Origin: an uncultured Acidobacteriota bacterium
Lineage (GTDB): Bacteria > Acidobacteriota > Polarisedimenticolia > Polarisedimenticolales > DASRJG01
NCBI GenBank assembly: GCA_964647625.1
Contig: CAZYHZ010000012.1
Location: forward strand, 1 to 64,000
DNA length: 64,000 bases
Reading direction: 5' to 3'
The translations under genes were made by a program, and so were the position numbers. Under the pieces are notes generated by a model. That model did not search any database. It worked only from the letters and a program-made list of their open reading frames with translations, and was not told where the DNA came from. Every line of letters begins with the position of its first letter. Position 1 is the stretch's first letter. Shown piece after piece: positions 9,446 through 57,265 of the stretch.

Positions 9446-9452
9446 GCGGCCG

Positions 9453-10136: not shown

Positions 10137-10154
10137 CGGGGCCGAAATTTTCGC

Positions 10155-10202: not shown

Positions 10203-10227
10203 AGCCCGGGAAAAAGGAGGAGCCCTC

Positions 10228-29599: not shown

Positions 29600-30444
29600 G
29601 CGGAGACCTCAAAAGCGCAGTCAAAAAGAAGTACGCCGAGGCGGCGACGCTCGCGGCTCAGGGCGAGGCGGCGTCGTGCTGCGGCGAGTCGTGCGGCTGC
29701 GCGAGCGACGCGCAGGCGATCGACCCCATCACCTCCAACCTTTATACCGACCACGAGAAAGACTCCGTCCCCGAAGGCGCGCTCCGCGCGTCGCTCGGCT
29801 GCGGCAACCCGACCGCTCTGGCGGAGCTGCATCCCGGCGAAATCGTCCTCGACCTCGGCTCGGGCGGCGGGATCGACGTCATCCTCTCCGCCCGCCGCGT
29901 CGGGCCGGCAGGAAAGGCCTACGGCCTCGACATGACCGACGAGATGCTGGCGCTCGCAAGGCGAAACCAGGCCGACGCGGGAGTCGAAAACGTCGAGTTC
30001 CTGAAAGGGGAGATCGAAGATATCCCCCTACCGGACGCCGCCGTCGACGTCGTCATCTCGAACTGTGTGATCAATCTATCGGCCGACAAGGACAAGGTGC
30101 TCCGCGAGGCGTTCCGCGTGCTCAAGCCCGGCGGCCGGTTCGCCGTGTCCGACGTCGTCGTTCAGGGCGAGGTGCCGGCCGACATCCGCCGAAGCGTCGA
30201 GCTTTGGGTCGGCTGCGTCGCCGGCGCGCTGGAAGAGAACGAGTACAAGGCCAAGCTCGAGCGCGCCGGGTTCGGATCGGTCTCATTCGAAGCAACCCGC
30301 GTCTACAAGCTCGAGGACGCCCGCGAATTCCTGTCGGCGCGCGGGATCGATGTGGTGGACGCCGCCCCGAAGGTCGAAGGCAAGTTCAGGAGCGCGTTCA
30401 TTCGCGCAGTGAAGCCGGGCCAACGCCCTCGCAGTATTACTTGA
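29596..30444 (+). CDS. arsM: Arsenite S-adenosylmethionine methyltransferase
   Basis: GTG at 29596, 5 nt after GGAGG. A Cys-rich N-terminus ([12 protein letters not shown]) and the SAM motif [12 protein letters not shown] are present, plus a conserved Cys in [10 protein letters not shown]. This is typical of ArsM. Confidence 0.9.
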
Positions 30445-39824: not shown

Positions 39825-40895
39825 TCATCCCTCCCGCCACCGCTCCCAGTCCGTCACGATGGCGCCTTCGAGGCCTTTCAACGCCACGACGAACTTTGAC
39901 CCCTTGATCCGCTGTAGTGCGGCCAAGAGTCGCTTTCGACCGAGGCCGCCGAGATGGATGTTCGCGGTCTCGGCGCCCATGCTGTGGAGCACGCTGCCGA
40001 TGTCGCCTCGCCGGGAAACGTATGCCAGCTCGATACGCCCATTTGACGGCGACAGTCGGCGGCCGACCCAGCGCTTGCGACAGATGAGGAATGGATCGGG
40101 GCAGCGCACGGCACGCCCAAGGACCGTCGAGTACCGGATCGACCTGGATCGAGGATCGCTCGCCCAGGCTGACGCCGCAGGAACGAGCTCTTTCACCTCT
40201 CGCGCGATCAGGCCGCCGGCCAGCTCGCCGACCGCGGTGAACCGTCGCCTGCCGAGACTGCCGAGACCCGCAATGCGACACACCACTCTCGTGCCGCGCA
40301 CGCCGTCCGGAGACAATTCCTCGAGCAACCGCCTCGCCGGCTTCGGCGGTGGCGATTCGACCGTCTCGAGGCTCTGCAGCTTTTTCCAGAACTTGGTCGC
40401 GTCTTTCAATCGCTCTTCGGCGATCGCGCGAAGTGCGGGATGACGCTCTTCGAGGACGAACGGTTGCCCGTGCCCCTTGATGCCTTCGTGATAGCCTTCG
40501 AGGATGGCGAGCGCCGTTCTGCGCGGGCCGAACCGCCGCCCACCGGCATGCAGGGCGATGAGAGCGCTCACCCCGAGGCGCAGCAGGTCCGAGGCGAACG
40601 GCAGCTCGTCCGCCTCATCGAAATCGTTGACACCCCACACGAGCCGGCCCTCGGCGTCACGCCACGTGCCGAAGTTCTCGACGTGGAGATCACCGACCGC
40701 CGGAACGGAAGGCGTGCTCGCAAGCCCTCCGGCCGGCTCCGACCAAATCTGCGACCAACGATAGTAAGTCGCGCACAGGAACTCGAACGGTCCTCGAGAC
40801 ATCTCGCGGTGCTTCAGCTCGAGGTGTTCGGGAATCAGCGGGGCTTGACCGCGAACCCACTGCTCATAGCTTTCGGTCGCGTCGAAGATATTCAC
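39825..40895 (-). CDS. DUF2252 family protein
   Basis: Strong overall resemblance to DUF2252, for example GDLHVENFGTWRDAEGRLVWGVNDFDEA and GLGSLGRRRF. Confidence 0.85.
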   Translation of the reverse strand: MNIFDATESYEQWVRGQAPLIPEHLELKHREMSRGPFEFLCATYYRWSQIWSEPAGGLASTPSVPAVGDLHVENFGTWRDAEGRLVWGVNDFDEADELPFASDLLRLGVSALIALHAGGRRFGPRRTALAILEGYHEGIKGHGQPFVLEERHPALRAIAEERLKDATKFWKKLQSLETVESPPPKPARRLLEELSPDGVRGTRVVCRIAGLGSLGRRRFTAVGELAGGLIAREVKELVPAASAWASDPRSRSIRYSTVLGRAVRCPDPFLICRKRWVGRRLSPSNGRIELAYVSRRGDIGSVLHSMGAETANIHLGGLGRKRLLAALQRIKGSKFVVALKGLEGAIVTDWERWREG

Positions 40896-42448: not shown

Positions 42449-44326
42449 CTATTTGTCCGACGGGTTCGTCGCGACGCGACGTGGGTCCGCTTCTCGAAGG
42501 GCGGTGAACTTCCACAGGCTGGCGGCCGCCGAATGACGCACACCCGGATCCCGGTCGTTCAGCAACGCCTTCAGCTGGGGCGTGAACTGCCTGACGGCAG
42601 CGGGTCCCATGGCCCCCACCTTCTCGGCCGCCCCACGCCTGATCTGTGCGCTGGAGTCGTTCAGCTCCTCCAAGATGCTCTGAACGGCCGACTTGTCGTT
42701 GTCGCTGAAATAGCCGATCGCACTGAGCGCATCGACGGTCTTGAGGCGAACCGACTGGTCGGGGTCGTTCAGCAGGGGCGAAATCTCGGTGCTGAACTTC
42801 GCGGCGCTCGAGGGATCATGAGCGGCGGCGTAGGTAAACGCGGCGAGCGCGCTCCCGCGAACGGCGCTGTTCGAGTCTCTCAGGAGTCCGGTCACCTCGG
42901 TCAGACGTGGAATGGTCGACGAAGTGCCGAGGCTTCCGAAGGCCGTTGCCGCGCTTCCACGGACCGAGGCGTCCGGATCCCGAAGCAGCGAGACGAATTC
43001 CGATGCGTAAGGCGCGGCCGCCTGGTCGCCCAGGGACGAGAGGTCGGTGACCGCCTTCGCGCGCACCACTGGGCTGGGCGATTTCATGAGCGACGCGAGC
43101 GTGTCTGCGCTCGGGTGCGTCACTTGCCACCACCGGAGGGCCCCCAGACCTAACATGACGAATAGAACACTGGCTGATCCGAGCCAGGCTCGCCGCCTGA
43201 GGCGCGTTGACTTGGACTTGAGCGTCTCGATGTGCAGCTGAGCTTCACGGGCCGACTGTTCCGCTTGCTCGGCGCGGACCGCGGCCTCCCGAGCCACTTC
43301 CCGGGCGTGGGAAAGCTCGACTCGCTGGTTCGCGACCTCTGCGTGCGTGGCCGTTTCTTCGAGGGCGGTCCAGTCCAGGCGATTCGACAGAAGCGTTGCC
43401 AGCCTGGCGTACGCCGCGCCGAGCGATGTCGGATCCAGTCGCTCCCGCTCGCTCTCCAGGACGGGGATTCGCTCACCGAAGCTCCAGCCGGCGACGTAGG
43501 GGATGAAGAGCCGGTTCAACGCGTCCGACGGGGCGACGTCATGGGGCAGCCACTCCCGGTAGAGATCGCTGAATTCCTCCGCGAAGATGCGCTGCCATTC
43601 GAGCGACTTGTCGTACTCCTTGTCCCGTTCGTCCCTCGCCGGAACGGGCACCCCCAGCAATTTGTTACGGTTCACCGGCAGCTTGGAGCGCGCACTGATT
43701 GCACGTGCCATCACGTTCTTGATTCCGGCGATGTTTTGGAAATTCGTCACGAAAAGGAGGACCAGCACATCCGGCAGGATCACCGTGCAAACGTCGCCGA
43801 TGTCCGTGATTCCCGTCCGGCTGTCGACCAGGATGAAGTCGTACGATTCACGCCATTCGTTCCGCAATGCGTCGATGTGGTTCCCGATGTTGTGATGGCG
43901 GTACAACGTGTCCCAGTCGAGTTGCTGGATGCGCTGCCGGTAGTCATCGCCGCGGCGCCCCGCCGAGATGATGTCGATCGGGTGGCCGAACACATCCGCC
44001 GTCAAGCGGCAGTTTCGCCAGTCGAGTGGCGCGCCCTTGCCGTACCCCTCGACGACGTCGACGACGCCGGGCGTTTTCGCCGGGTCGCCCACGAGCCGGC
44101 CGGACTTCTCGAAATAAATCTCGAGACCCGGCGCCTCGAGATCCCAATCGATGAGCAGGACACGATGACCTGCGGCCGCCATGACCGCACCGACGTTGGC
44201 GAGCGCCATCGAGCGGCCCACGCCGCCCTTGTAGGAATAGAACGTATAAACGAGGCCGAGGGGGTTCTCGGTAGATCCATCAATCACCGGCAGGCCTCCT
44301 GATCGGCTGTTCCGGTGTGACTCCAT
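42449..44326 (-). CDS. KGGVGR-motif ParA/MinD-like P-loop ATPase, then coiled-coil, TM and C-terminal HEAT/PBS-lyase repeats
   Basis: Deviant Walker A (YSYKGGVGRSMALANVGAVMA), coiled-coil, TM (AWLGSASVLFVMLGLGAL) and HEAT repeats (VRAKAVTDLSSLGD...). An alternative GTG start at 44287 overlaps the TIR stop (GTGATTGA). Confidence 0.85.
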   Translation of the reverse strand: MESHRNSRSGGLPVIDGSTENPLGLVYTFYSYKGGVGRSMALANVGAVMAAAGHRVLLIDWDLEAPGLEIYFEKSGRLVGDPAKTPGVVDVVEGYGKGAPLDWRNCRLTADVFGHPIDIISAGRRGDDYRQRIQQLDWDTLYRHHNIGNHIDALRNEWRESYDFILVDSRTGITDIGDVCTVILPDVLVLLFVTNFQNIAGIKNVMARAISARSKLPVNRNKLLGVPVPARDERDKEYDKSLEWQRIFAEEFSDLYREWLPHDVAPSDALNRLFIPYVAGWSFGERIPVLESERERLDPTSLGAAYARLATLLSNRLDWTALEETATHAEVANQRVELSHAREVAREAAVRAEQAEQSAREAQLHIETLKSKSTRLRRRAWLGSASVLFVMLGLGALRWWQVTHPSADTLASLMKSPSPVVRAKAVTDLSSLGDQAAAPYASEFVSLLRDPDASVRGSAATAFGSLGTSSTIPRLTEVTGLLRDSNSAVRGSALAAFTYAAAHDPSSAAKFSTEISPLLNDPDQSVRLKTVDALSAIGYFSDNDKSAVQSILEELNDSSAQIRRGAAEKVGAMGPAAVRQFTPQLKALLNDRDPGVRHSAAASLWKFTALREADPRRVATNPSDK

Positions 44327-44861
44327 CCTCGGGGACTTCGACGACGGGGAACCCGTCGTCGTAGGGAGGCGCGTTGAGGATCGTCTGGGCGAGCTCGTGC
44401 GCGAACGGCTTCAGGATCTGATTCTCGAAATCGACGGCGGATTCCGTCTTCCAAAACATCGGCAGAGTCGATGTGAACTGACTGAAGTCCCGAGAATGCT
44501 TCGCCGTGGCGAGCGCCGGGAAGGATTCGCCGTCAAAGTACCGCACCGGGACCACGAGGTCGCAATGAGCAACACGCTCGCGCTCGACGAAGGTCATCCA
44601 CTCCGAAACGCACCAGCGGGATCGGAAGTACAGGGGCGACCAGACGCACAGGATGCAGCGTGACCGCTTGAGCGAATCCGCCATCTTCTTTCGCCAGTCG
44701 ACGCCTGTCTTGATGTCCTCGGTATCGAAGAATATCTGGACGTCCTGGCGCTGAAGCTCCAGCTTCAACCAATAGTGCAGCTTGGTCTTGACGGTCTCAT
44801 GCCACGCGTCGCTTTCCCGGTCGCGCTTGTAGCTGAAGAAAACGTCGTACAGATAGTCCAA
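44280..44861 (-). CDS. TIR-domain protein
   Basis: TTG start, 5 nt after GAGGTG. TIR motifs are YDVFFSYKRD and SRCILCVWSPLYFRSRWCVSEW. Confidence 0.88.
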   Translation of the reverse strand: MDYLYDVFFSYKRDRESDAWHETVKTKLHYWLKLELQRQDVQIFFDTEDIKTGVDWRKKMADSLKRSRCILCVWSPLYFRSRWCVSEWMTFVERERVAHCDLVVPVRYFDGESFPALATAKHSRDFSQFTSTLPMFWKTESAVDFENQILKPFAHELAQTILNAPPYDDGFPVVEVPEDGVTPEQPIRRPAGD

Positions 44862-44997: not shown

Positions 44998-45873
44998 CTA
45001 GACTCGCCGGGCCACCCACGATCGATGCTCCCGGGAAACGACGGCCTCGACGTCATTGACCAATCGCGCCAGATCGGCCTCGCTCTGAACTCCTTGGGCG
45101 CGCGATTTCAGCTCGTTGAGGTCGCTGTGCGCGGCGCTGTAGGCGCCCGCCAGCTCCGAGAACTTCTTGGCCTGGGACCACGCCAAAAGGCAGGCCGATA
45201 GGGCCGCCACGGCCCCGGTCGGGTTGTATTCGCGGATGACGAACATACGGGACGCCGCGGCGATGATCGCGAGGACCTCGAGCACGGTGATCGCCCGGAA
45301 CGAAATTGAATCCGCAACCGCGTTCGCCTTCGCGCTCTCGCGGTACCAGTCGATCTGGTCCTGGAGGCGGTGCGTCGAATAGACGTCCGTCCGCTCCGCC
45401 AGCGTCATCGACCGGAGCCGCAGCATCGCGGGAGTGATCTCGTCCCCGGAGACGCCGAACCGCGCGATGTGTGCGTCCATCCGGGGAAAGCGCCGCCGCA
45501 GTTGGTGAAGCTCATCCAAGAAACTCTCGGCGTCTTCGGCTCCGCCCGGCCTCATCACGAATCGCCACGTTGCGGCCTTGACGCTCTCGGCGATCGCCCT
45601 CGTGCGGAACCATCTGTCGTCCAGCGCGGCCAATTTGAGCGTCAACGTCAACACCAACGCGAAAAACATCAAAATCGCAATCAGCCCGTCGACCCGATGC
45701 GCGAGCGGCAGGTCGCGTGGTGACCAGGCCGACAGGAATGCCGTCGCGCCCAGCAGCAGAAGGTGCGCTCCGAGCCAACGTAGATAGGAGCGCTGATAGG
45801 CCCGCGCGGCCGCAGAGCTCGACTGCAAGATCGCGGGGCCACCCTGCAGCGGGCTTACAGACGCCTTGGGCAT
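44998..45873 (-). CDS. SLATT-domain (DUF4231) membrane protein
   Basis: ATG at 45873, 6 nt after GGAGAA. The conserved block is YQRSYLRWLGAHLL...2TM...LDDRWFRTRAIAESVKAATWRF. The ORF-track start at 46086 is an extension. Confidence 0.75.
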   Translation of the reverse strand: MPKASVSPLQGGPAILQSSSAAARAYQRSYLRWLGAHLLLLGATAFLSAWSPRDLPLAHRVDGLIAILMFFALVLTLTLKLAALDDRWFRTRAIAESVKAATWRFVMRPGGAEDAESFLDELHQLRRRFPRMDAHIARFGVSGDEITPAMLRLRSMTLAERTDVYSTHRLQDQIDWYRESAKANAVADSISFRAITVLEVLAIIAAASRMFVIREYNPTGAVAALSACLLAWSQAKKFSELAGAYSAAHSDLNELKSRAQGVQSEADLARLVNDVEAVVSREHRSWVARRV

Positions 45874-45993
45874 ACATTCTCCGAACCGATTGCGCTCTGA
45901 TGCGGTATGATCCCGGTCAGATAGCCACCCGAGGAATCGGGCATCCCGCCCAATTCGAAACGGTGCACGTCTTACCACAGCGGGGTCACCATC

Positions 45994-48246
45994 GTGTACG
46001 TCCTCAGCAAAGATCCAAGATTCAACAGCCTCTCCGTGGCGGATCTTCTCGAAGCGCGTGATCTCTATCACACGCATCTGATCCACAAGAGGAACGTCGT
46101 CGGCACGGCGATCGGCCGGTACCTCATCCGGAAGGACGACAGTGCGCGGCGCAGCGACGGCTCCAAGCCCGAGCGCCGTTTCGACAACTCAGAGATCAAA
46201 GATTGGTCGTGGCCCTGCGTGATCGTACTCGTCGACCAATGGGAGGACTCGGCGGCGCCCTACGACCTGGTTCCCAAGACGCTCTATCTGCCTGACGGAC
46301 GAAGCGTGCCCGTCTGCCTCGTCCTCGTGGATCGACAACCCCACGATGGATCGAAGATCCCGCATTGGGTCTGGCCCGACGGTTTGTGGGGCGGGGGCAT
46401 GCCTCTCATCGTCGATGCTCAACGCATCGAGCGAGTCGCAAGCTCCGGCTGCCTCGTGAGCGACGGTCACACCCTCTACGTGTTGACCAACCGGCATGTG
46501 TGCGGAAACCCGGGCCAGGCCGTGTACACCCTGCAATCGGGGCGACGCAAGCTCGTTGGTCACGCCAGCGACAAGCAGCTGACCCGGAGGGCGTTCAAGA
46601 AGGTGTACACGGGTTACGTTGGCCGCCAGACGTGGCTGAACCTCGACGTCGGTCTGGTCGAGCTCGACGACGCCAGTGCGTGGACGTCGCAGGTGTACGG
46701 GCTTGGCCCTGTGGGCCAGCTCGCCGACCTCAGCGAGATCAACATCAGCCTGCGTCTCATCGACGAGCCCGTGGTGGCACACGGAGCGGCCTCCGGTCAG
46801 CTCGATGGAAAGATCATGGCGTTGTTCTATCGGTATCGGTCCGTGGGCGGGTTCGAGTACGTGGCCGATCTCTTGATCGCTCCTCCCGGTCGCGGAAAGC
46901 TCCAAACGCAACCGGGAGACTCGGGAACGATTTGGCATCTTCGAGACACCGATACCAAGAAGCTGCTGCCTCTCGCCATCGAGTGGGGCGGCCAGACGAT
47001 CGCCGATCCGCAAGCCGGGGGCCTCGTCAATTTCGCGCTCGCCACCAACCTGAGCACCGTGTGCCGTCTCCTCGATGTCGACGTCGTGGGCGACCACAAC
47101 GTCGGCGTTGCGCCCTACTGGGGGCAAACGGGTCACTACAGCATCGGATCGCTTGCGTGCGACCTCGTATCGTCGAAGAACCTTTCTCAGCTCATGACTT
47201 CGAATCGTGATCGGATCGCGTTCGCTACCGCCGAGCTGAATCCGGCGGACATCGGGGACGCGATCAAGACCGCGAAAACGGACGCCGGATTCATTCCGCT
47301 CGCGGACGTTCCCGATCTCGTCTGGAAGACGCTCGTCGGAAAAGTTGCCGGCGGCCGAGATCCGTACCGTGGCGCCAAGGGGCGCTCGAACGGCCCGGAG
47401 CATCCGACCCATTACGCCGACATCGACGAGGAGCGCGAGAGCGACGGCAAGACCCTGCGTCAGTTGTGTATGGAAGATCCGTCGAACGTCGACGTGGAGG
47501 TGTGGAAAAAGTTCTACACCGACCTTGGCCACACAGAGTACGGGAAACGCGGTCTCCTTCCATTCCGGGTGTGGCAGTTCTACGACGCGATGATCGCCGC
47601 GGTGAAGTCCAAGAAGCTCGATGAGTTCGTTTGCGCGGCCGGTCTCGTCTCGCACTACGTCGGCGACGCCTGTCAACCGCTCCACGGCTCGAAGCTGGCC
47701 GACGGATACGCCGATCAGCCAACCACGGTGGAGCACACCCGAAGGGCGACGGGCGAGACCTACGAGGAGGACTCGCACGTCGGTGCGGGAGTGCATTCCG
47801 CGTACGAGACGAACATGGTCGACCGGTTCGCATCGGAGCTGGTGGCCGGTCTGACAAAGGCGATCAAGGAGCCTTCGAAGGGGCCCAAGCCGGTCGCATC
47901 GGGGCATGAAGCGGCCGCGGCCATCGTCGCTCTGATGGATCGCACTGCGAAACGCCTTCCGCCGGAACAGCTCATACAGACGTATCTCAAGGCCGGCGGA
48001 AAGAAGGCCGTCGCCGTTTACGAAGCGCTCTGGGATGCGTATGGCGACGCGACCATCGAGACGATGCTCGATGGGTCGCAGGTCCTGGCGATGATTTGGG
48101 ACAGCGCGTGGTCGGCAGGGAAGGGCGATTCGATTCCCCAGGGGTCGTTGGCGGCGATCAAGAAGGAGACGTTGCAGGAGCTGTACGAGAACACGGAGTT
48201 CGTCCCGTCGCTCGACCTGGATCACATCGGCGCCGTCCTGAAATGA
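45994..48246 (+). CDS. Fusion protein: N-terminal trypsin-like serine protease domain plus C-terminal S1/P1-nuclease (Zn-dependent PLC/nuclease) domain
   Basis: GTG start. Trypsin catalytic elements are TNRHV (His), DVGLVEL (Asp) and GDSGTIWH (Ser). The C-terminal SHYVGDACQPLH matches the S1-P1 nuclease HxxGDxxQPxH signature. Confidence 0.85.
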   Translation: MYVLSKDPRFNSLSVADLLEARDLYHTHLIHKRNVVGTAIGRYLIRKDDSARRSDGSKPERRFDNSEIKDWSWPCVIVLVDQWEDSAAPYDLVPKTLYLPDGRSVPVCLVLVDRQPHDGSKIPHWVWPDGLWGGGMPLIVDAQRIERVASSGCLVSDGHTLYVLTNRHVCGNPGQAVYTLQSGRRKLVGHASDKQLTRRAFKKVYTGYVGRQTWLNLDVGLVELDDASAWTSQVYGLGPVGQLADLSEINISLRLIDEPVVAHGAASGQLDGKIMALFYRYRSVGGFEYVADLLIAPPGRGKLQTQPGDSGTIWHLRDTDTKKLLPLAIEWGGQTIADPQAGGLVNFALATNLSTVCRLLDVDVVGDHNVGVAPYWGQTGHYSIGSLACDLVSSKNLSQLMTSNRDRIAFATAELNPADIGDAIKTAKTDAGFIPLADVPDLVWKTLVGKVAGGRDPYRGAKGRSNGPEHPTHYADIDEERESDGKTLRQLCMEDPSNVDVEVWKKFYTDLGHTEYGKRGLLPFRVWQFYDAMIAAVKSKKLDEFVCAAGLVSHYVGDACQPLHGSKLADGYADQPTTVEHTRRATGETYEEDSHVGAGVHSAYETNMVDRFASELVAGLTKAIKEPSKGPKPVASGHEAAAAIVALMDRTAKRLPPEQLIQTYLKAGGKKAVAVYEALWDAYGDATIETMLDGSQVLAMIWDSAWSAGKGDSIPQGSLAAIKKETLQELYENTEFVPSLDLDHIGAVLK

Positions 48247-48271
48247 CGGCGCTCGAACAGGAGACGCGACG

Positions 48272-49159
48272 ATGACGCGTGGCGCATTCGGTTTCGAAGT
48301 GAACGACGAGGGGGACCTCCTCAACTCGGTACGGAACGTCGAGACGCTGCGACGATTGTTCCTGGATCACACGTTGATCACGGGCGACGATCTCGGCCCG
48401 GGCGATCGAGGGGACTTCGACGTCGGGGCGTGGCACGTGAGCTGCCACTTGGCGGGCGCCGGCGGCGTCCGGAAGAGTCGAACCGGTAAGCTGCTCTGGC
48501 TCGAGATCTCGCACGATCACGACCGCGATTCGTACTATGCGAGCGTTTCCTTGCGCGACGGTGGATCCGTTCGCACCGTCCGGATCGAGACGGCGGAAGG
48601 CCGGTCGATTCTGAGCGGCTCGCGGCTCCTCGGGTTCGTGGAGGGAACCTCGATCGGTCCCATCTCCGCGCACGGCGTGCAGGACCCTCCCGATCTCTTC
48701 AATCTCTGGCGGAGGCAAGATTTCGACCAGCCGATCGGCGAGACGATCGAAGGCGGGAAGGTCTGGGAGCACTGGTGCACGCTCCGCGATATCCGGCCGA
48801 CGCATCGCATCGGGACCGTCACCTTGAGCGCGTACGTCGCCCTCGCCGCGGCGCTCGGAGATCGGTTTGCCGCGACGGTGGCTCGTGGCCGCAGAGAGTA
48901 CGGGCACCCGGTCCAGCTCGCAGCGTTCGTCTGGTCGGGATTCGTCGGACGTCGTTCCGCGACGTGGGACACGAAACCGGCCCCGATCCCAGCCGCTGCG
49001 GAACCCTTGCTGCTGAGCGCCGATCCCGCTCAGGCGCTCGAGGCCGTCGAGCGCTTGGACTGGCCGTCGCTGCGCTACTACATGTACCGCCGAAAGATCA
49101 AAGGCTGGAGCGCGGCCGCCCATGTGAGCAAAGACATCAAAGCGTTCAAGCCGGCGTGA
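48272..49159 (+). CDS. Hypothetical protein (no recognisable domain)
   Basis: ATG 7 nt after AGGAGA and 25 nt after the upstream stop. Coding-like composition. Confidence 0.7.
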   Translation: MTRGAFGFEVNDEGDLLNSVRNVETLRRLFLDHTLITGDDLGPGDRGDFDVGAWHVSCHLAGAGGVRKSRTGKLLWLEISHDHDRDSYYASVSLRDGGSVRTVRIETAEGRSILSGSRLLGFVEGTSIGPISAHGVQDPPDLFNLWRRQDFDQPIGETIEGGKVWEHWCTLRDIRPTHRIGTVTLSAYVALAAALGDRFAATVARGRREYGHPVQLAAFVWSGFVGRRSATWDTKPAPIPAAAEPLLLSADPAQALEAVERLDWPSLRYYMYRRKIKGWSAAAHVSKDIKAFKPA

Positions 49160-49176
49160 CGAGCCAGAGGACAACG

Positions 49177-50358
49177 ATGCCGAAACATCTCATTGTTCGC
49201 GACGCCGCGGCCGTCAAGGCCGTCGAAGCGATCGGCGACCACACGGATAGCTGGAAGGCAGGCTGGGCCGCAATCAAGTCCGGTGGCGAGGTCATCGCAG
49301 AGATCCAGTCGATCGCGCGCGCCCGGTCCTGGACCTCGCTCACGGACGCGACGCCGTTTCTCAACGATCACGCACAGCGCCTCCTCGAGATGCGCCTCGA
49401 AGCGATCCACAAGTTCAAGATCGCTCCGCATCACCGTCGCGGTTTCAGGATGAATGTGCGTTCGGGAGCTCGGAAGCCGCGAAGCGTTCGGGCGCTGTGT
49501 CTGATCAGCGGGTACGAAGGCCAGGAAATCCCCGGCCTCGTCGATGCCGAAAGGGTCGTGGTCGACGCCGAGCACATGGAGCAGGCGCTGGGTCCCGCAG
49601 CGATCGCGGAGATCTTCAAGATCCGGAAGCGCATCGGGGAGAACGTCCTGATCTCCACCAACGTCTCCGAGTCACCGCAAATCGTGAGGTCGGCCCAGAC
49701 GGGCGCCGTCGATGTCCGCTCGACCGCGGCACTCTCCGCGTCCAAGGTGATTGCAGCCATCAGCGCGGGAGCCGACGTCGTCAAGGTCGGCTTCGCCAAT
49801 CCAAACCCGTTCAAGGGAGATCTCGGCTTCGAGGTGATCCTGAGTCAGATGAAGCTGATCCGTTCGATGATCGACGACGTCGTCAAGGAGAGACTGGTCG
49901 TCTTCCCGCTCAGCCGCACGGAAGGACAATTTCCGCTGATCAGCGTTTTTTTCCCCGAGATGGGGATCGACAGCGCGGGCGAGCGGCCGGTCGAAATCGC
50001 ACAGAAGGGAATCGAGCTGACCAAGAAAGCCGGCTGGCAGGGGATGCTGATCGATACGTTCGAGAAGTACACGGGCCGCCGGTACCCGGATTTCTACTCG
50101 CTGGCTGATACGGCGGCGCTTGCAAGCGCCGCGCACGAGTCGAAGCTCGAGTTATGGATCGCCGGCTCCATCCTCCAAGCGGAGGTTGCCGCTTATCTGA
50201 AATGCGGCGTCGACCTCATCTGCTTCGGCGGGGCTGCCCGTCATGCGGAGGGAATCCGCGTCACGTCGAAGGGGGCCAAGCGGGACGAGTCCATCAAGCG
50301 GCCTCTCGTCGAAAAGCTCGTCGCGACGTTCAACAAGCTCGATCCCAAGGGCCGCTGA
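49177..50358 (+). CDS. Hypothetical protein, possibly aldolase-type TIM-barrel-like (AISAGADVVKVGFANP block)
   Basis: ATG at 49177 after AGAGGA, 17 nt after the upstream stop. The stop overlaps the next ATG (TGATG). The fold assignment is speculative. Confidence 0.7.
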   Translation: MPKHLIVRDAAAVKAVEAIGDHTDSWKAGWAAIKSGGEVIAEIQSIARARSWTSLTDATPFLNDHAQRLLEMRLEAIHKFKIAPHHRRGFRMNVRSGARKPRSVRALCLISGYEGQEIPGLVDAERVVVDAEHMEQALGPAAIAEIFKIRKRIGENVLISTNVSESPQIVRSAQTGAVDVRSTAALSASKVIAAISAGADVVKVGFANPNPFKGDLGFEVILSQMKLIRSMIDDVVKERLVVFPLSRTEGQFPLISVFFPEMGIDSAGERPVEIAQKGIELTKKAGWQGMLIDTFEKYTGRRYPDFYSLADTAALASAAHESKLELWIAGSILQAEVAAYLKCGVDLICFGGAARHAEGIRVTSKGAKRDESIKRPLVEKLVATFNKLDPKGR

Positions 50359-51242
50359 TGCCCCAACGCGCCAAACGTCGCGGGCTCCTCTCGGACGCTC
50401 GCGTCTATCTTTCGGGGCCCATGGATTTCGTCGCGTCGCGCGCCGACGAAAAGACGCACGGGTGGCGCAATAGGGTCGGAGAGTTCCTGCGGGCTCTCGG
50501 AGTGACGGTATTCGACCCGTGGTTCAAGCCGGAGGTCCGCGGGCTTCATCAATACGGCATCGAATCCGAATCCACCGTCAATGCCCGCGAGAGCTGGACG
50601 TTCGCTCGTGGGAAGCTCGGCGGTCGCGCCAGGGCCAAATGCGTGGCGCAGTACTGGCAGACTCTTCACACGGATCTCAGGATGGTCGACACCAGCGATT
50701 TCATCGTTGCCTACGTTCCCACCAATATTTACAGCGTGGGCACGCCGCACGAGATTGCGCTCGCTCGCCAGCAGCGCAAACCCGTGCTCTTCGTGAGTCC
50801 CGCGGTGGAGATTCCTGCGCTCGACGAGCTGAAGCGTCATCTGGAAGACCGCAACGATGCACGAGGCCGAAAACTGCTCGAAGATCTCTGCAACGAGACG
50901 CCGATCAAGCCGAACCCAAGGGGCATTCCCAGCCTCTGGTACATGCCTCTCGTCGGCGGACAAAATTTTTTCGACGGTTTCGGTTTCCACCAATACGCCA
51001 GGCTATTCCCGGACTGGAAACCGATCTCTATCGACGGCCAAGAAGCGAAGAAGCGGCCTGTCCGACCGCTGCTGCCGTTTCTCGAGCGGGTCAATCGAGA
51101 GCTTCCTCTCAAGTGGGACGCGGCAGGCAGGCGTCCTCGACCCGACGACGACTGGCTTCTCTGGGACCTCCGACGCGCCGGTCGTCGAAAGGCAGGGGCA
51201 CAACTCAAGGGCGTTCGAAGCTCGACCGAGTCCCTGGGCTGA
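50358..51242 (+). CDS. Nucleoside 2-deoxyribosyltransferase-like (NDT/DNPH1-fold) domain protein
   Basis: ATG at 50358. VYLSGPMDF corresponds to the NDT YFGAGWF-type strand. The DFIVAYVPTNIYSVGTPHEIALA block carries a Glu at the NDT catalytic-Glu position. Confidence 0.75.
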   Translation: MPQRAKRRGLLSDARVYLSGPMDFVASRADEKTHGWRNRVGEFLRALGVTVFDPWFKPEVRGLHQYGIESESTVNARESWTFARGKLGGRARAKCVAQYWQTLHTDLRMVDTSDFIVAYVPTNIYSVGTPHEIALARQQRKPVLFVSPAVEIPALDELKRHLEDRNDARGRKLLEDLCNETPIKPNPRGIPSLWYMPLVGGQNFFDGFGFHQYARLFPDWKPISIDGQEAKKRPVRPLLPFLERVNRELPLKWDAAGRRPRPDDDWLLWDLRRAGRRKAGAQLKGVRSSTESLG

Positions 51243-51254
51243 CGATTCGGTCGG

Positions 51255-54200
51255 CTACTTTTCGAGGACCGCCTCGCGTGCGGCCTTTTGAATGGCCAGG
51301 ATGGAAATCCCTTCGTTCGCCTGATAGGGGTTTCCCGAGCCGTCGATCGCCGTCATTCGGTCTTTCCCGCTGTGGTGCAGCGCGACTGCGCGCCACCCGT
51401 TCGGCTCGAAAACCGGACTGCCGGAGCTTCCGCCCTCGGTCGGCGATCGGTAGTGCAGGCGGGTCTCGTTGAACGCGACGAGACGATTGTCGTGGAGCGA
51501 GATCTCCAGATCCCTCCCGCCGGGACACCCGATCACGTACATCCGGGGAGCGGGTGTGGTCATCTTCATCGGCGCGGGGCACAGAGGAATCGGGACGGAG
51601 TTCGGTAGAACGCCCTCCAGCTCGAGGAAGCTGGCGTCGAGCTGGTCGACCGGAGAGCTCCAAACGACCCTTCGGACTCCCAGCATGCTTCCGCCGTTGG
51701 GACCGCCGAGGAAGTGGATCTGGGCCTCCCACGGAAGAAGAGGCGGTACGCCGACGCCACCGCCTTTGGCCGGCGGGTTGGCGATCACGTGCGCATTGGT
51801 CAGCAGCACGATCTCTCCATCCGGGCGCGACGGGAAGAAGTCGCGTGCGCGAACGAGCCACCCGGTTCCGACCCCGCGCCCCGCCTGCTCGATCCGTGCC
51901 ACGCTCTTGCTTCGCTCAATGGCCATCAAGAGCCAAGCGATGCTCTGAGAACCTTCCGCTCCGAACCGGCGTTGCAGGCCAGCAGTGTCGGGGTTCAGCG
52001 CATCTCGACTCAAGTTGATTCGTCCGGCCGGTCGCTTCGCGAGCGCGTCGCGAATCAGCGGAAGGATCTGTTTGCCCGGATCGGAACCGTCGCTGAGTCG
52101 CCAGATTTCTTCGAGCTGTCGCCGCGTTCCCTCGAGCGCAAAGGACGTGATGCCGGCGGCACGGAAATACTCCCGCGCCGCGTTGACGGCCTCGTCGTTT
52201 CGGCCGAGGGCGATGTAGGCCTCCATCTGGCTCGCGATGACCCACAAGTCATCGTCCGTGGCCATTGCGCCGTGGGTTTTTCGGTCCAGGCTCTCGAGGA
52301 TCTTCGCGGCGAGATCGGACGCCGACGCTCGGTCGCCTTTCCGGGACAGCAACGCCGCCGCGTTGACTCCCTGCCAGTGGTTGGACTCCGCGTTCCGGGA
52401 ATATGCGGCCGAGTAGTAGTCGATCGCCTTTTGCAGGTCTTCCGGCCGGCCCTCGCCGAACTGTTTTTCGACGTTCACGAAGGCCTGCTTGTGCAGCCGG
52501 CCCATCAAGCCCGTGGCCTCGTCTCGTTCCTCGGCCGGTGCGCCCTGATCGGCGATGAGCCTTTCCAGGATGAACTGCGCTTCGGGAAACCGACCGACGT
52601 CGAGGAAGGCCTGAGCGGTCAAGCGCTTGATCTTTGCGCTGTGGAGGCCGGACTTTTCGATCGCGCCGGAAAGTCGAACCAAAGCATCGAAACGCCGATA
52701 ATCCCGCAGCGCACCGACCGTATGTTTCGCGAGTTGCTCTTCAACCGGCTGCCCGAGGGCAGAGATCGCACGGATCAGCTCATCGACGATCGAATCGACT
52801 CCCACCCAGTCGTATTCGCTCAGCCGGTCTTTGAGTCGTTTCTCGAGCTTCTCGAGCGGTGTCCTCGACGTGGAGTCGTTGTCGAGGACGACGTCTACCC
52901 AGCCGTTGATGGGCGTGTAGATCTGCTCCGCGGATTCGAATCCGGCCTCGGAGGGCTTCTTCGGATCGAACTCTCTCAAACTTCCGAAGTCCAGATGCGT
53001 CAGCTTCTCGAGCGTGACGATCGGAAGCTGGTACGTACGAAACTCGCCGAACGCGAATTCCAGGCCGGAGATCATGTCCGCTTGGCTCAAAATATACGCG
53101 GTCGCGGAAAGGCGGCCGGCGTCTCCGATAATGCTGACCACCTTCCAGAACTGAAGCGGGATTTTCGCGCCCCGGTATGGCATGTCCTCGTCGCTGAACA
53201 CCGGTCCCGTGAAAACATTGACCTTGAGATTCTCTTGCCCCGCATTCCGGTAGATGTACTCTTCGAGATCGTTCCAAATTTTCTGATTCAGGTCTTTGTG
53301 TTGTGGGCACGAGTTCGTGTAGTGGAAAGTGTCGGAATTTGCGCCCTCGGCGTCGTCCCCCCAAACGGGATCCAGTCTCCTGACCATGTGCCCGCGGTCG
53401 AGGTCGTTGTCGACGTAAAGTGCGTTGTCGAACTGGGCCTCGTCGGCGAGGCGCGGATCCAAGCGCCAGGGGACCCCGTCCCTGCCGAGACTCTGGAGCG
53501 AAGTTCCGAGGATGTTCACTGCGGTGAACATGCTCAGCCGACGTGAGCGACTCATGACGACCGAAAAATGGGTGTACGGAAGGACGGTCGAGGTCGTGTT
53601 CTTCGTCGTCATGTATGAAAGAACGTCGCCGGCGAGCGGTCCTGTCGGCGTGGGCAGCGGGACGGCAATGCCGATGAAGTTCTCGTCGTACCCTGTGCGA
53701 TCGTCGTATTCCGAGGGATCAACGCGTCGTTCGAGGCCCTCGAGCGATTCCGCGAGCCTGATTGCGGTTCGGCCCGGCGGGAGGCTCAATCCGAGTTCCT
53801 CGGCCAGCGCCGCGATTCGCGAGACTGGGATCACCCCGCCGCCGTCCGCCACGAGACCGATGGCTTCGCCGGAAGATAGGGAAACGATCGGCGCGCCCAG
53901 GGCGCCATTCGGGAACGGTCCATCCGCGTCGAGCCGGGACAAAGGCTGTCCGGGGGAGAATCGTCCGAATCCAATCCACGAGCTCGCGCGCGAGCCCAGC
54001 ACGGCGGCATCGTCGTCGGTAGCCGTCCGAGCGACGGGGATGTGAGCAGGCAACGAACCGTCCACCTCCACGATGGCGAGATCGGGATCGTTGCGGCTTC
54101 GAAGCACCGCGCGCACGCGCACCGACTCTCCCGACCTGAGGCGAACCACTGACCCGACAGTGGGGTCCGTGCGGAAGGCGATCACACGTCCGGGTGCGAT

Positions 54201-54380
54201 GACCCACCCGGCGGCGAGGACACTCGACGCCGGCTCGAATTCGCAGACGGCCGCAGCGGCTCGGCGCAGGTCGTTGACCGCGAACGCCGCGCAGCGATAC
54301 CAACGCTTCGATGCGTCCTTTGCCAGGACGTCGAGCACGCTGCCGGGATCGGCGGTCGAAGTCAACGTCACGAATGGCAT
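51255..54380 (-). CDS. Giant multidomain protein (1041 aa): protease-like N-domain, DNA/RNA non-specific endonuclease (NUC, DRGH motif), TPR-like helical region, C-terminal trypsin-like serine protease
   Basis: ATG at 54380, 7 nt after GGGAG. The NUC motif reads DRGHMVRRLDP...N...FHYTN. The C-terminal S1 peptidase shows LLTNAHVI (His) and EGGSSGSPVF (Ser). The ORF-track start at 54629 is an extension. Confidence 0.85.
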   Translation of the reverse strand: MPFVTLTSTADPGSVLDVLAKDASKRWYRCAAFAVNDLRRAAAAVCEFEPASSVLAAGWVIAPGRVIAFRTDPTVGSVVRLRSGESVRVRAVLRSRNDPDLAIVEVDGSLPAHIPVARTATDDDAAVLGSRASSWIGFGRFSPGQPLSRLDADGPFPNGALGAPIVSLSSGEAIGLVADGGGVIPVSRIAALAEELGLSLPPGRTAIRLAESLEGLERRVDPSEYDDRTGYDENFIGIAVPLPTPTGPLAGDVLSYMTTKNTTSTVLPYTHFSVVMSRSRRLSMFTAVNILGTSLQSLGRDGVPWRLDPRLADEAQFDNALYVDNDLDRGHMVRRLDPVWGDDAEGANSDTFHYTNSCPQHKDLNQKIWNDLEEYIYRNAGQENLKVNVFTGPVFSDEDMPYRGAKIPLQFWKVVSIIGDAGRLSATAYILSQADMISGLEFAFGEFRTYQLPIVTLEKLTHLDFGSLREFDPKKPSEAGFESAEQIYTPINGWVDVVLDNDSTSRTPLEKLEKRLKDRLSEYDWVGVDSIVDELIRAISALGQPVEEQLAKHTVGALRDYRRFDALVRLSGAIEKSGLHSAKIKRLTAQAFLDVGRFPEAQFILERLIADQGAPAEERDEATGLMGRLHKQAFVNVEKQFGEGRPEDLQKAIDYYSAAYSRNAESNHWQGVNAAALLSRKGDRASASDLAAKILESLDRKTHGAMATDDDLWVIASQMEAYIALGRNDEAVNAAREYFRAAGITSFALEGTRRQLEEIWRLSDGSDPGKQILPLIRDALAKRPAGRINLSRDALNPDTAGLQRRFGAEGSQSIAWLLMAIERSKSVARIEQAGRGVGTGWLVRARDFFPSRPDGEIVLLTNAHVIANPPAKGGGVGVPPLLPWEAQIHFLGGPNGGSMLGVRRVVWSSPVDQLDASFLELEGVLPNSVPIPLCPAPMKMTTPAPRMYVIGCPGGRDLEISLHDNRLVAFNETRLHYRSPTEGGSSGSPVFEPNGWRAVALHHSGKDRMTAIDGSGNPYQANEGISILAIQKAAREAVLEK

Positions 54381-54399
54381 TGCTCGCTCCCTCGTCGCG

Positions 54400-54960
54400 T
54401 CATCCTCGTCTTCCGCCGCGACCGCCGCCTGTTCCGCGACCTCCGCCTCCGCCTCGCCCACCAGGCGACCTTCCGGCGCCGCCGCCCGATCGGCCGCTCG
54501 AGCGGGCACTCGGTGATCTGGGCGAGGGGCGGCTCGCGCGCGAGGCGGGGGATCCCCGGCGGGTTTGCGCTGCGACGCGGGCTTGTCCTCTCCCGGCCGT
54601 TGAAGTCGGCCCTCGCAAGACGGGTGCACTCATGCGCGCAGCGTTGCGTAGGATCGACTTGACGTACTTTTGGGTCTCTTTGAACGGTGGGACTGAGTTT
54701 CCCGCCTTCTTGACGTTGCCGGGGCCCGCGTTATAGGCGGCCAGTGCGAGGGCGTAGTTTCCCTTGAAAGTCTTGAGCTGTCGCGCGAGGTACTTCATCC
54801 CACCTTTGATGTTCTGCTCGACGTTCGTAGGATCGACTTTCAGCTCTTTCGCTGTCTTGGGCATCAGCTGCATGACGCCGATCGCTCCGACACGGCTCTT
54901 GGCGCTTTGCAGTCCGCGTCTTTCTTGCCAGGCCTGCTCTTTGGCGATACCGGTATGCAC
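54400..54960 (-). CDS. Lytic transglycosylase (SLT domain) with Arg/Gly-rich C-terminal tail; possibly N-terminally truncated/pseudogene
   Basis: The SLT core reads E...VGAIGVMQLMPKTA...AYNAGPGNV. GTG start at 54960. An in-frame TAA lies 11 codons upstream, preceded by ATG with a GGAGG RBS. Confidence 0.7.
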   Translation of the reverse strand: MHTGIAKEQAWQERRGLQSAKSRVGAIGVMQLMPKTAKELKVDPTNVEQNIKGGMKYLARQLKTFKGNYALALAAYNAGPGNVKKAGNSVPPFKETQKYVKSILRNAARMSAPVLRGPTSTAGRGQARVAAQTRRGSPASRASRPSPRSPSARSSGRSGGGAGRSPGGRGGGGGRGTGGGRGGRRG

Positions 54961-55117: not shown

Positions 55118-56548
55118 TTACTTGGCCTGCAGACGACGAATGCCGGCCATGACATCGGGCGCGATTCGACTCTGCAGCTTGTGGGTGGTCAATTCATCGA
55201 GTGCGGATCGATAGGAATCCAATGCACCCGTGGTTTGTCCCGCGAGTTCTTGAAGCTGCGCCAACATGAAATGGAACGTCGGTCGCTTTTCTTCCGGAAC
55301 GACGTGTATCGGGAAGAGCCACGAGAAGGTCCGCAAGTGGTCGGCCGGTGGGACGATCTTCAGAAACACCGCCCGATCGCGCTGAGCAACGAGGCGGTCG
55401 TAGTAGACGTTCCAAATGTCCCACAGCGAAGTATCCGTCTCGTTCGAGATCGGGAACGGAAAGTCCTCGGCGTTGGCGCTCATCTCTGAGAGCACGCGCA
55501 CCAAGCCGGCTTGCAGCGGCAAATCGGCGGTCAGCAGATGCCCGCGAAGCTCCATACGTCGGACGTAGGTCCGCTCCCGCTCGGAGGCCACCGCTCTAGA
55601 AAAATGAACCTCGGCATCTGCGATCGAGCCATTCGACGTTAGGATGAAGTAGCCCCACATCGCATGCGCGAACGGATTGTCGGCGTCTCGCTCGATCGCT
55701 CGCTCGTAGTACACCGTCGGATCGATCCGCGTGACCACGTCCTTCGACCGGAGATACGCCGCCCAACCTAGATGCGCGAGCGCGTCCGCCGCGCGCTTGG
55801 CGTCTTTCGCTCCCGCCGCTCGAACGAGCGTCGGTTCCACCTTGGCGGCGACGTCCGTGAACGTTTCGGTTCGGACGATCGCGTGGACGTTGTCGAGCCA
55901 ATCCATCGCCACGCCCTCACAGCCGAGTCGCACCACATCGCTTTCCCCGTCGAGGGCGAGCGCGGTGGAGCAACGATCCCACGCCGCGGTGTAGTTCGAC
56001 GACTTCCGGTCGAGATCCGCATGGGCGACGAGCCGCGCCGCCTCCTGGCGGGACTCCAGTCGGAGGTACCCGCGCCACAGCCCGAGTCCCCCGGCGATCG
56101 CGAGGACCGTCAGGATTAGGGCGACGCGAACCGATCTGCCGAGCGACCAGCGCGAGTGCCCGAATCGGCGGACCGCGTCCCCAACCTCGGCCGCGACGTT
56201 TCCCTGCGGTTCCAGAATCACGACCGCGCGCAGGTAGGGAGGGATGGCGGTGCGATCGACGTGCCGCACGACTACGGGTAGGACTCGTCCCGCGGGATTG
56301 GGCCACTTTTCCTCGGCAAATCGAATCTCGCTGAGGGTATAGCGACCCGCCGCCACGGCTTCCGGGCTCAGCAGGAACACGAACAGGTCGGCGTCTCGGA
56401 TCGCATCGCAGATTCGCTCGTCGTAGGCGCCGCCTTCGGTGAGATCCGAGGCATCGAGGAAGACTTCATCGCCGTCCTCGCGGAGGGCCAGCGCGATTTC
56501 CTCGGCGATCGTGCGCTGCTCCGAAGCGTGGGACAGGAAGATCTTCAA
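55118..56548 (-). CDS. TIR-domain membrane protein (N-terminal TIR, one TM, C-terminal domain of unknown function)
   Basis: TTG start, 6 nt after GAGG. The TIR reads KIFLSHASEQRTIAEEIALALREDGDEVFLDASDL...DADLFVFLLSPEAVAAGRYTLSEIRFA. The TM is VALILTVLAIAGGLGLW. Confidence 0.85.
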   Translation of the reverse strand: MKIFLSHASEQRTIAEEIALALREDGDEVFLDASDLTEGGAYDERICDAIRDADLFVFLLSPEAVAAGRYTLSEIRFAEEKWPNPAGRVLPVVVRHVDRTAIPPYLRAVVILEPQGNVAAEVGDAVRRFGHSRWSLGRSVRVALILTVLAIAGGLGLWRGYLRLESRQEAARLVAHADLDRKSSNYTAAWDRCSTALALDGESDVVRLGCEGVAMDWLDNVHAIVRTETFTDVAAKVEPTLVRAAGAKDAKRAADALAHLGWAAYLRSKDVVTRIDPTVYYERAIERDADNPFAHAMWGYFILTSNGSIADAEVHFSRAVASERERTYVRRMELRGHLLTADLPLQAGLVRVLSEMSANAEDFPFPISNETDTSLWDIWNVYYDRLVAQRDRAVFLKIVPPADHLRTFSWLFPIHVVPEEKRPTFHFMLAQLQELAGQTTGALDSYRSALDELTTHKLQSRIAPDVMAGIRRLQAK

Positions 56549-56680: not shown

Positions 56681-57265
56681 GTGATCGTCGCCCTGGAGCG
56701 ACGAGGAGGGTTCCCAACGTTGAGCGTCGTCGCGCTGGCCGGTCGCCGGATCGACGCGATGGGAGCGTCCCCGCGCTTCGCCGAGTCGCGGATCGCTATC
56801 GTTCGAATCCGGATTCGCTCCATGCTGGTGTCGCAACGGGCGCGAGCGCTCGTGTGCTCGGCAGCCTGCGGCGCAGACCTGCTCGCACTCGAAGCCGCCG
56901 GCGAGATCGGCCTCAGGCGCCGTGTCGTGTTGCCGTTCGACGCCGAGCGGTTTCGGGAGACGTCCGTCATCGACCGCGGCGGGGATTGGGGCGGACGTTT
57001 CAAGCGCATCATCGATGCGGTCGAGGCCACGGATGATCTGATCGTGCTCGATGCGGAGGCGGGTGACGAGGAAGCCTACGCCAGCGCGAGCTTGGCCATC
57101 TTGAACGAGGCCGAATCGCTTGCCGCGGCAAGCGACCCCCCCGACAAACTGGTCGCGGCGATCGTGTGGGAGGGGGCCGCTCGCGGTGAAGACGATTTGA
57201 CCGGCTATTTCGCGACGCAGGCGCGCGGTCGCGGATTCGAGTTGATTGAAATCTCAACCAGGTGA
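56681..57265 (+). CDS. SLOG-like (DprA/LOG-type Rossmann) domain protein
   Basis: GTG start. ALVCSAACGADLLALEAAGEIGLRRRVVLPF resembles the DprA/LOG vVSGxAxGIDxxAHxxAL strand-helix motif. The stop overlaps the next start (GTGA). The family call is tentative. Confidence 0.65.
   Translation: MIVALERRGGFPTLSVVALAGRRIDAMGASPRFAESRIAIVRIRIRSMLVSQRARALVCSAACGADLLALEAAGEIGLRRRVVLPFDAERFRETSVIDRGGDWGGRFKRIIDAVEATDDLIVLDAEAGDEEAYASASLAILNEAESLAAASDPPDKLVAAIVWEGAARGEDDLTGYFATQARGRGFELIEISTR

Follow-up and report, generated by a model that had tools for sequence, protein, structure and literature searches.

Do the four tightly packed genes at positions 45994 to 51242 of contig CAZYHZ010000012.1, from an uncultured Acidobacteriota bacterium, form a single immune system? 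An earlier note, made from the letters of the window (the first 64,000 nucleotides of the contig), took these genes, here called g1 to g4, to be one candidate defence or effector unit. Comparison across genomes redraws that unit. What is conserved is g2, a barrel protein (g3 or a remote paralogue) and g4, accompanied by interchangeable partners; the order g1-g2-g3-g4 exists only here and in a close relative, locus L019, g1 being otherwise a stand-alone gene. We read the locus as an undescribed, horizontally mobile conflict module, probably anti-phage, in which a three-gene core works with an interchangeable phosphodiesterase-type executioner, the part taken by g1 here, and we give this reading an even chance of being correct. 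It is suggested by the combination of rarity with a multi-phylum distribution, a lower-GC region, the company of TIR, SLATT, CBASS and Septu-like genes, and the replaceable degradative enzymes. The comparative evidence for the three-gene unit is solid; that for its mechanism is weak.

The four genes are:
45994..48246, + strand: g1, protease/zinc-phosphodiesterase fusion, GTG start, 750 residues
48272..49159, + strand: g2, orphan protein, 295 residues
49177..50358, + strand: g3, MfnB-like barrel, 393 residues
50358..51242, + strand: g4, NDT/DRHyd-like enzyme, 294 residues

The open reading frames (ORFs) confirm the arrangement first described, i.e., four same-strand genes with junctions of 25 nt (g1-g2), 17 nt (g2-g3) and -1 nt (g3-g4, the one-base overlap TGATG). 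The start codons of all four match the N-termini of their homologues, and g3 begins at the ATG at 49177, not at a GTG further upstream in its long ORF. A good ribosome-binding site had been claimed for each gene; this is true of g2 (AGGAG) and g3 (GAGGA), but the g4 site (AAGGG) is weaker and that of g1, with only GGGG, is poor.

The conserved core and its distribution

Homologues of g3 number more than 140, at 53-76% identity, and those of g2 more than 536; g2 adjoins g3 in 11/11 distinct loci retrieved with g3. Metagenome retrieval with g2 gave 177 relatives, with 80 loci kept, and the 95 loci in total fell into 57 clusters at 90% g2 identity. Counts for the core use the 31 clusters with at least 3.5 kb readable downstream of g2: a barrel partner (g3 or X570) is found in 29, g4 in 22, and both in 21. 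Co-location elsewhere, a check that the earlier note had asked of its own proposal, thus holds for the trio. X570 is a 570-residue protein that matches no Pfam family; hhalign relates it to g3 as a remote paralogue (probability 84%, E 7.6e-6), and the motifs DAE, TTN, IDTxxK and WAGG are common to both.

The core genes are found in several orders, namely g2-g3-PLD-g4, g2-g4-X570 and g2-X570-g4, and such variation is better explained by selection to keep them linked than by descent from a single arrangement. The families also co-diverge: pairwise identities of g2 correlate with those of g3 (r=0.84), X570 (r=0.81) and g4 (r=0.78), and less closely with those of the PLD partner (r=0.41), which argues that g2, the barrel and g4 are a co-inherited core and that PLD is replaceable.

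The module comes mostly from uncultured soil Acidobacteriota and Planctomycetota, host groups whose immune repertoire is poorly sampled. Among the hosts named are Terriglobales, Solibacteraceae and other Acidobacteriota, Gemmataceae, Zavarzinella, Alphaproteobacteria, Pseudolabrys, Opitutaceae, Eisenbacteria and a 'Deltaproteobacteria' metagenome-assembled genome. The family is rare: g3 patterns matched in 10 of 185,579 species genomes.

Some loci carry additional copies of g2. Three paralogues share one contig in L063 (5900..6754, 10001..10870 and 18561..19415). Here tblastn found no barrel; a Pfam scan then found a divergent one beside one g2 copy. The first copy is followed by this more MfnB-like barrel (GGADIIDCEDP) and by a 431-residue protein, with a weak match to PNP_UDP_1, a phosphorylase family, nearby. 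Tandem g2 copies in L064, L065 and L081 (e.g., L081 4891..6872) lie between an upstream PtuB-like gene and downstream g4 and X570.

Predicted roles of g2, the barrel and g4

The earlier note could assign neither g2 nor g3 to a family. For g2 this assessment stands: no match was found in Pfam, NCBIfam, PADLOC or PDB sequences, nor any fold match among solved structures. A HMMER search of 1.84 billion representatives delimited a family of 112 clusters and found no distant relatives or real fusions; seemingly longer g2 proteins are frameshifted gene calls. No g2 was found in phage records, plasmids or viral contigs. The family has the invariant motifs GPGDxGDF, GAWHxxCH, WLE, WRRQDFD, GGKVWEHWC and ARGRRxYGHP, and its most conserved segment, WRRQDFD...GGKVWEHWC (residues 146-169), falls in a low-confidence part of the model. 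g2 probably acts in sensing or regulation, or else represents a new enzyme.

By contrast, g3 does belong to a known family, matching PF04476 above the gathering score (4.5e-12, 46.7 bits against a cut-off of 22.4). The aldolase-type or sugar-phosphate barrel that had been tentatively suggested for it is now confidently modelled: the predicted structure (AlphaFold2, pLDDT 89) is a TIM barrel preceded by a four-helix N-terminal extension of ~100 residues, and its best Foldseek match is MJ1099/MfnB (PDB 4rc1; E 1.5e-12, TM 0.81). Pfam and NCBI names for such proteins, 4-HFC-P synthase or (5-formylfuran-3-yl)methyl phosphate synthase, would fit a housekeeping role in methanofuran-type cofactor synthesis, or one in nucleotide salvage, which we regard as extremely improbable. 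MfnB depends on four essential residues, Asp25, Lys27, Lys85 and Asp151, and forms its Schiff base on Lys27 (PMC6604932). The C-terminal phosphate-binding segment and equivalents of Asp25, Lys85 and Asp151 are kept in g3, a hidden Markov model alignment placing Lys85 on K203 and Asp151 on D293. However, strand beta-2 reads VVVDAE in g3 against ADIIDVK in MJ1099, yielding Asp130 and Glu132, which do not vary among 25 sequences, and it is Glu132 that occupies the Lys27 position. No lysine occurs anywhere in g3 residues 82-147, which cover strands beta-1 and beta-2 and run into the next helix.

The L063 barrel, which aligns unambiguously via Pfam, has GGADIIDCEDP where MfnB has GGADIIDVKNP, and all three barrel variants (g3, X570 and L063) carry Asp-x-Glu in place of Asp25-x-Lys27, which marks the Lys-to-Glu change as a trait of the family. 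Since the Schiff-base lysine is absent, g3 is not a 4-HFC-P synthase, and its chemistry differs from that of MfnB because a Glu stands in that position. Other observations also speak against a housekeeping role. NCBIfam equivalogs score 25-29 bits against g3 (cut-offs, 297-341), the neighbourhood is a defence island that contains no further mfn genes and not a methanofuran-biosynthesis locus, the family is sporadic across phyla, and the GC of the island is below that of the first 24 kb of the window. None of the tools assigned g2, g3 or g4 to a housekeeping pathway; the earlier note had said that such an assignment of all four genes would count against its proposal. The fold and the retained residues suggest that g3 is a phosphosugar-binding barrel derived from the MfnB family, predicted to bind or convert a phosphoribosyl-type moiety. 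We found no literature tying PF04476, DUF556 or MfnB to defence.

g4 consists of an NDT (nucleoside 2-deoxyribosyltransferase)/DRHyd-like domain at residues 15-150 and a conserved aromatic-rich C-terminal extension with the motifs PSLWYMPLVGG..FFDGFGF and DDWLLW. The NDT fold blocks first noticed in it withstand comparison: RVYLSGPMDF (the hhhxGP motif) and VGT(P/V)HEI (the GT-x-x-E motif) are invariant, as is Glu132 of g4 at the catalytic-nucleophile position, and HEIA aligns to WELG of PDB 6evs. In Pfam, 24/25 family members match PF05014 at E<=0.01, while g4 itself matches both PF05014 and PF15891 (6.6e-5) just below the gathering score. These residues suggest that g4 is an enzyme predicted to cleave or exchange the N-glycosidic bond of a nucleotide or NAD+.

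Enzymes of the NDT superfamily with a catalytic Glu are found in anti-phage context in retron type II-A (Ec86/Sen2) and, as ThsI, in type VIII Thoeris, with NAD+ depletion or nucleotide-pool manipulation reported or proposed: the NDT-like effector of retron Ec86 depletes NAD+ (PMC13276650), ThsI is a CMP-hydrolase effector (preprint 10.64898/2025.12.03.692087), and DRHyd is related to TIR (PMC7159879). Compared with these effectors, g4 lacks a fused DNA-binding domain and has its own conserved C-terminal extension, no TIR gene is consistently linked to it, and the PADLOC retron models do not match it. In L021, a g4-type NDT-like domain (8830..9540) carries fused ankyrin repeats, and another ankyrin protein comes after it; no barrel gene occurs in the 1.8 kb left on that contig.

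Interchangeable partners and the place of g1

Partners were counted in the 23 clusters with good flanks on both sides:
PLDc_2: 12/23 clusters
SLATT: 4/23 clusters
DUF2252: 4/23 clusters
g1: 3/23 clusters
DUF6119: 3/23 clusters
PtuB-like HNH: 3/23 clusters
TPR-S/trypsin: 3/23 clusters
EEP: 2/23 clusters
no recognised partner: 5/23 clusters

Elsewhere g1 is replaced by PLD, EEP, DUF6119, SIR2-PtuA/PtuB, or SLATT plus TPR-S-trypsin genes. A PtuB-like HNH gene overlaps g2 by 4 nt in L044, where it lies 3' of a SIR2-PtuA fusion, and likewise by 4 nt in L021. SLATT genes stand beside the module in L006, L007, L019, L023, L025, L050, L075, L080, L084 and L086, usually adjoined by the TPR-S/trypsin genes where these occur. 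At several loci the EEP gene is followed by a protein of 820-1030 residues (L007 6563..9034, L008 14683..17181, L015 4682..7147), which has no match in Pfam, PADLOC or PDB save a weak C-terminal TPR. The U8 partner protein (823 residues) has no match in Pfam, PADLOC or PDB.

The PLD partners match the PADLOC models DrmC, DpdK, PbeA and ZacB (DISARM, Dpd, Pbe and Azaca, respectively), and the variable partners are mostly of nuclease-capable families. This would be expected of a restriction-modification-like system in which the trio makes a modified base or sugar or inserts it into host DNA, with g4 as the transglycosylase and g3 making the precursor, and the variable nuclease (PLD, EEP, HNH or the P1-like domain) restricts unmodified invader DNA; the TIM barrel and glycosyl-transfer chemistry are indeed reminiscent of the Dpd system. 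We nevertheless consider this scheme quite unlikely. DNA-binding, helicase, ATPase and methyltransferase components are all absent from the core, g3 is nearest to MfnB and its Foldseek matches to TGT structures are weaker (E ~1e-5), and the five clusters that lack a recognised partner lack a nuclease-type one too. Moreover, the P1/PLC, PLD and EEP families each contain lipid phosphodiesterases as well as nucleases, so that the executioner may target either nucleic acid or lipid.

DUF2252 genes, which Pfam places in the PKinase clan (PMC9758233), lie beside g2 or inside the operon in L006, L007, L008, L015, L019, L020, L023 and L025-L033. The DUF2252 protein is a possible accessory of the module. 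With this kinase-like protein counted, all recognisable parts resemble metabolic enzymes, the others being a barrel of the aldolase type and an NDT-like enzyme. The trio, joined by the kinase in some lineages, might therefore make an analogue of a nucleoside or nucleotide, either an antiviral chain terminator or an antibiotic, and the phosphodiesterases would be unrelated neighbours or tailoring enzymes. In the L020 operon DUF2252 is one of the internal genes, and NDT-superfamily hydrolases act in nucleoside-antibiotic biosynthesis. This small-molecule pathway seems very unlikely to us, given that DUF2252 is present in only 4 of the 23 clusters, that no transporter, resistance or typical tailoring genes recur, and that the neighbours that do recur are immune-type (TIR, SLATT, CBASS, Septu-like).

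The partner at this locus, g1, is composed of an N-terminal module (residues 1-130), a Nal1-type serine protease (residues ~140-340) and a trinuclear-zinc domain of the P1-nuclease/phospholipase-C type (residues 366-750). The protease matches Pfam Nal1_C (PF25819) above the gathering score (5.4e-9, 36.1 bits against 26.1), the solved NARROW LEAF 1 (NAL1) proteases in PDB (E 2e-7) and, under the Pfam threshold, Trypsin_2. The zinc domain matches S1-P1_nuclease (PF02265; 1.5e-4, 22.1 bits against 29.5) and Zn_dep_PLPC (PF00882; 2.4e-3, 18.3 bits against 26.8), both below the gathering score. The two catalytic signatures originally read from g1, a trypsin triad and the S1/P1-type HYVGDACQPLH, are upheld by 30 diverse homologues: neither His168 nor Ser310 varies, and at least 90% have Asp218; the nine zinc-ligand positions W376, H381, H473/D476, H554, D558, H564, H601 and E605 are invariant; and the motifs W376-G-x-x-G-H381, HYVGDACQPLH (H554-x3-D558-x5-H564) and H601-x3-E605 are kept. 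The view that this architecture is unusual has to be given up: with at least 1618 homologues and a PADLOC model, PDLC03017 'trypsin-like', that spans full-length g1 (E 2.3e-57), the protease-phosphodiesterase fusion is a widespread family. The same architecture of 736-896 residues is seen among the best matches listed, so g1 is a single gene and not two mis-joined ones, an error that the earlier note had allowed for. A stand-alone 163-residue ORF in L005 (3847..4338) has 44% identity to g1 residues 1-128; the N-terminal region of g1 is therefore a separable module.

In P1 nuclease and phospholipase C (PLC), the free amine of the N-terminal Trp1 is a zinc ligand, and the mature protein is secreted; the third metal site is His-x3-Glu in PLC and His-x3-Asp in P1 nuclease. 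S1/P1 nucleases and the Bacillus/Clostridium zinc PLC have WGxxGH, HxxGDxxQPLH and H-x3-(D/E) in common with g1, and the zinc-domain profile places WGxxGH on mature residue 1 and HYVGDACQPLH on HFMGDIHQPLH of Arabidopsis AtENDO2, with a weak overall E of 0.19. The g1 domain differs from these enzymes in being intracellular, without a signal peptide, and in starting at an internal Trp376, behind the protease, so that the translation product has no free N-terminal Trp at this site. The residue preceding Trp376 is aromatic (Tyr or Phe) in 12/12 g1-family sequences, being Tyr375 in g1. A zymogen arrangement can be predicted from this layout, in which the protease would expose the Trp376 amine, and protease activation of the zinc domain is plausible. 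If correct, the zymogen hypothesis would extend to a whole family of protease-zinc-phosphodiesterase fusions, more than 1600 in number, whose annotation goes no further than 'S1/P1 nuclease' or hypothetical. The label 'nuclease' is not established for g1, since its third metal site is His-x3-Glu and it matches Zn_dep_PLPC; judged by these residues, the domain appears as PLC-like as P1-like and its substrate could be nucleic acid or lipid.

Comparable arrangements are 'System 3' of Kaur et al. (2020, eLife), which combines a trypsin with a NucA endonuclease, and the TPR-S/SLATT conflict systems: as in g1, a peptidase accompanies a degradative phosphodiesterase, with proteolytic activation proposed. 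In g1, however, the protease is of the Nal1 type and is joined to a zinc domain of the P1/PLC type instead of HNH/NucA. The terms 'deoxyribosyltransferase' and 'TIM barrel' were not found in that text, and the g2-g4 core is not described there.

Is g1 then part of the system or its neighbour? The locus may comprise two independent systems side by side, an autonomous toxin or defence gene (g1) and a separate g2-g3-g4 module, an explanation that we think doubtful and yet worth serious attention. Synteny rules out g1 as a conserved partner of the trio, which it accompanies in just three lineages, this one included. In one of these, L005, g1 lies 4 kb beyond g4 with an opposite-strand gene between. 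Genes of the g1 family are usually solitary, among housekeeping genes, in Rhizobium, Polaromonas, Ralstonia and a 2.4-Mb metagenome-assembled contig, and one is carried by a conjugative plasmid of Sphingobium, where its neighbours are an anti-phage dGTPase and a ParDE toxin-antitoxin pair; such autonomy means that g1 is possibly a mere neighbour. The local arrangement points the other way. g1 and g2 are on the same strand and only 25 nt apart here and 46 nt apart in L019, the g1-g2 gap showed no terminator-like hairpin (one begins at 51237, at the g4 stop codon), and g1 occupies the position held by PLD, PtuB or DUF6119 genes in other lineages. L019, 73-80% identical, has the whole island in common with the window, including DUF2252, SLATT, TPR-S/NucA and TIR genes.

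Membership of a retron was considered and rejected. The idea was prompted by the PADLOC numbers near PDLC03017, which are retron accessory genes, and by the retron II-A NDT effector. No reverse transcriptase (RT) domain was found among the genes scanned at 25-64 kb, nor any Rfam match in 38-58 kb at E<=0.1; in the retron and UG/Abi papers, trypsin-like domains are only fused to RT or to the NDT effector protein.

Defence setting and a possible mechanism

The claim that no described antiphage system matches this gene set is borne out by the PADLOC v2 models, of which none matches g2, g3 or g4 at E<=0.1; only g1 has a match. The module as we read it, a conflict system with a fixed core, resembles CBASS, Thoeris and Pycsar, which likewise combine conserved enzyme genes with interchangeable degradative partners, lie in defence islands and are horizontally mobile. 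It differs from them in that the g2-g4 core has no CD-NTase, TIR or cyclase, and its partner enzymes have no known sensor domains (SAVED, STING, SLOG, Macro). In L010, L012 and L013 the module has a CBASS operon as its immediate neighbour, and TIR genes are found near it in this window, L003 and L019.

A mechanism may be sketched as follows. Upon infection, g4 would attack a nucleotide, and g3 would bind or convert the resulting ribose- or deoxyribose-phosphate moiety; an essential nucleotide would thereby be depleted, or a nucleotide-derived molecule produced, and the partner phosphodiesterase would degrade nucleic acid or membrane lipid. At this locus g1 would be activated by proteolysis, a cut before Trp376 freeing the zinc-ligating N-terminal amine. 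We infer the substrates, the order of the reactions, the role of g2, the coupling of g1 and its autoproteolysis. A more elaborate proposal is a new class of immune module in which a non-canonical molecule derived from a nucleotide or phosphosugar is made or consumed, through N-glycosidic exchange by the DRHyd-like enzyme and rearrangement in the Lys-to-Glu barrel, and licenses phosphodiesterase executioners, with g2 as the infection sensor and the zymogen switch in g1; we regard it as speculative and improbable.

A defence role is inferred from gene context and residues, and the proximity of defence genes is expressed as raw neighbour counts. Several observations tell against a defence module built on this core and its executioners. 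No partner was recognised in five of the 23 clusters, genes of the g1 family stand alone elsewhere, and signalling models are weakened by the lack of recognisable ligand-sensor domains in the partner enzymes. The core itself is not uniform, clusters L038 and L050 having g2-g4 with no barrel detected by tblastn. The match of g4 to PF05014 (1.6e-5, 25.5 bits) is below the gathering score of 28.8, and the g4 family profile finds no NDT in PDB, so g4 is assigned to the superfamily and not to a family within it. The most conserved loop of g2 (residues 135-166) is modelled with low confidence, which makes the structure uninformative as to function.

If this is a defence system, it has a new core, without a CD-NTase, TIR, cyclase, RT or STAND component, that includes a protein with no solved structural relative and a repurposed MfnB-family barrel. 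The attachment of PLD, EEP, P1/PLC, HNH, DUF6119 and SLATT to one core would then constitute a natural experiment in how core and executioner talk to each other.

The description of the setting as a low-GC island next to TIR and SLATT genes proved accurate: GC is 0.61-0.65 at the locus against 0.67-0.72 over the first 24 kb of the window, and profile scans find conflict-type genes abundant around g1-g4. A repeat scan for island boundaries gave only chance-level matches, and no tRNA was found. The neighbours are:
39825..40895, - strand: DUF2252 kinase-like gene (PF10009, 3e-23), here 5 kb from the module
42449..44326, - strand: ParA/MinD-HEAT protein, 625 residues, with a P-loop and HEAT repeats (PADLOC candidate model PDC-M28B, 1.5e-23)
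44280..44861, - strand: short TIR gene, on the same strand as the SLATT gene and 3' of it
44998..46086, - strand: SLATT two-transmembrane effector gene (SLATT_1 5.9e-29, SLATT_3 1.2e-16), divergent from g1
51255..54629, - strand: trypsin/NucA/TPR-S/trypsin protein, 1124 residues, neighbour of g4
55118..56548, - strand: TIR-TPR protein, extending the immune island
57262..58548, + strand: TPR/TPR-S protein, with a homologue near the module in L006

The SLATT gene may belong with the adjacent TIR gene rather than with g1-g4, the pair being a separate system; TIR+SLATT pairs have been named type VII Thoeris, with a canonical cyclic ADP-ribose signal (preprint 10.64898/2025.12.03.692087). The TIR gene also shares a 47-nt overlap with the ParA/MinD-HEAT gene. 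Next to g4, the 1124-residue protein is exactly of the peptidase-NucA type of 'System 3': it has a weaker extra Trypsin_2 stretch, Endonuclease_NS (NucA), TPR-S and a clear C-terminal Trypsin_2, and its counterpart in L019 is two separate genes. Farther away, the minus strand of the window encodes a 1892-residue protein with Kelch beta-propellers and Dictyostelium-type CTDC repeats (30437..36115) and an MtrB/PioB-type outer-membrane porin (25118..27355).

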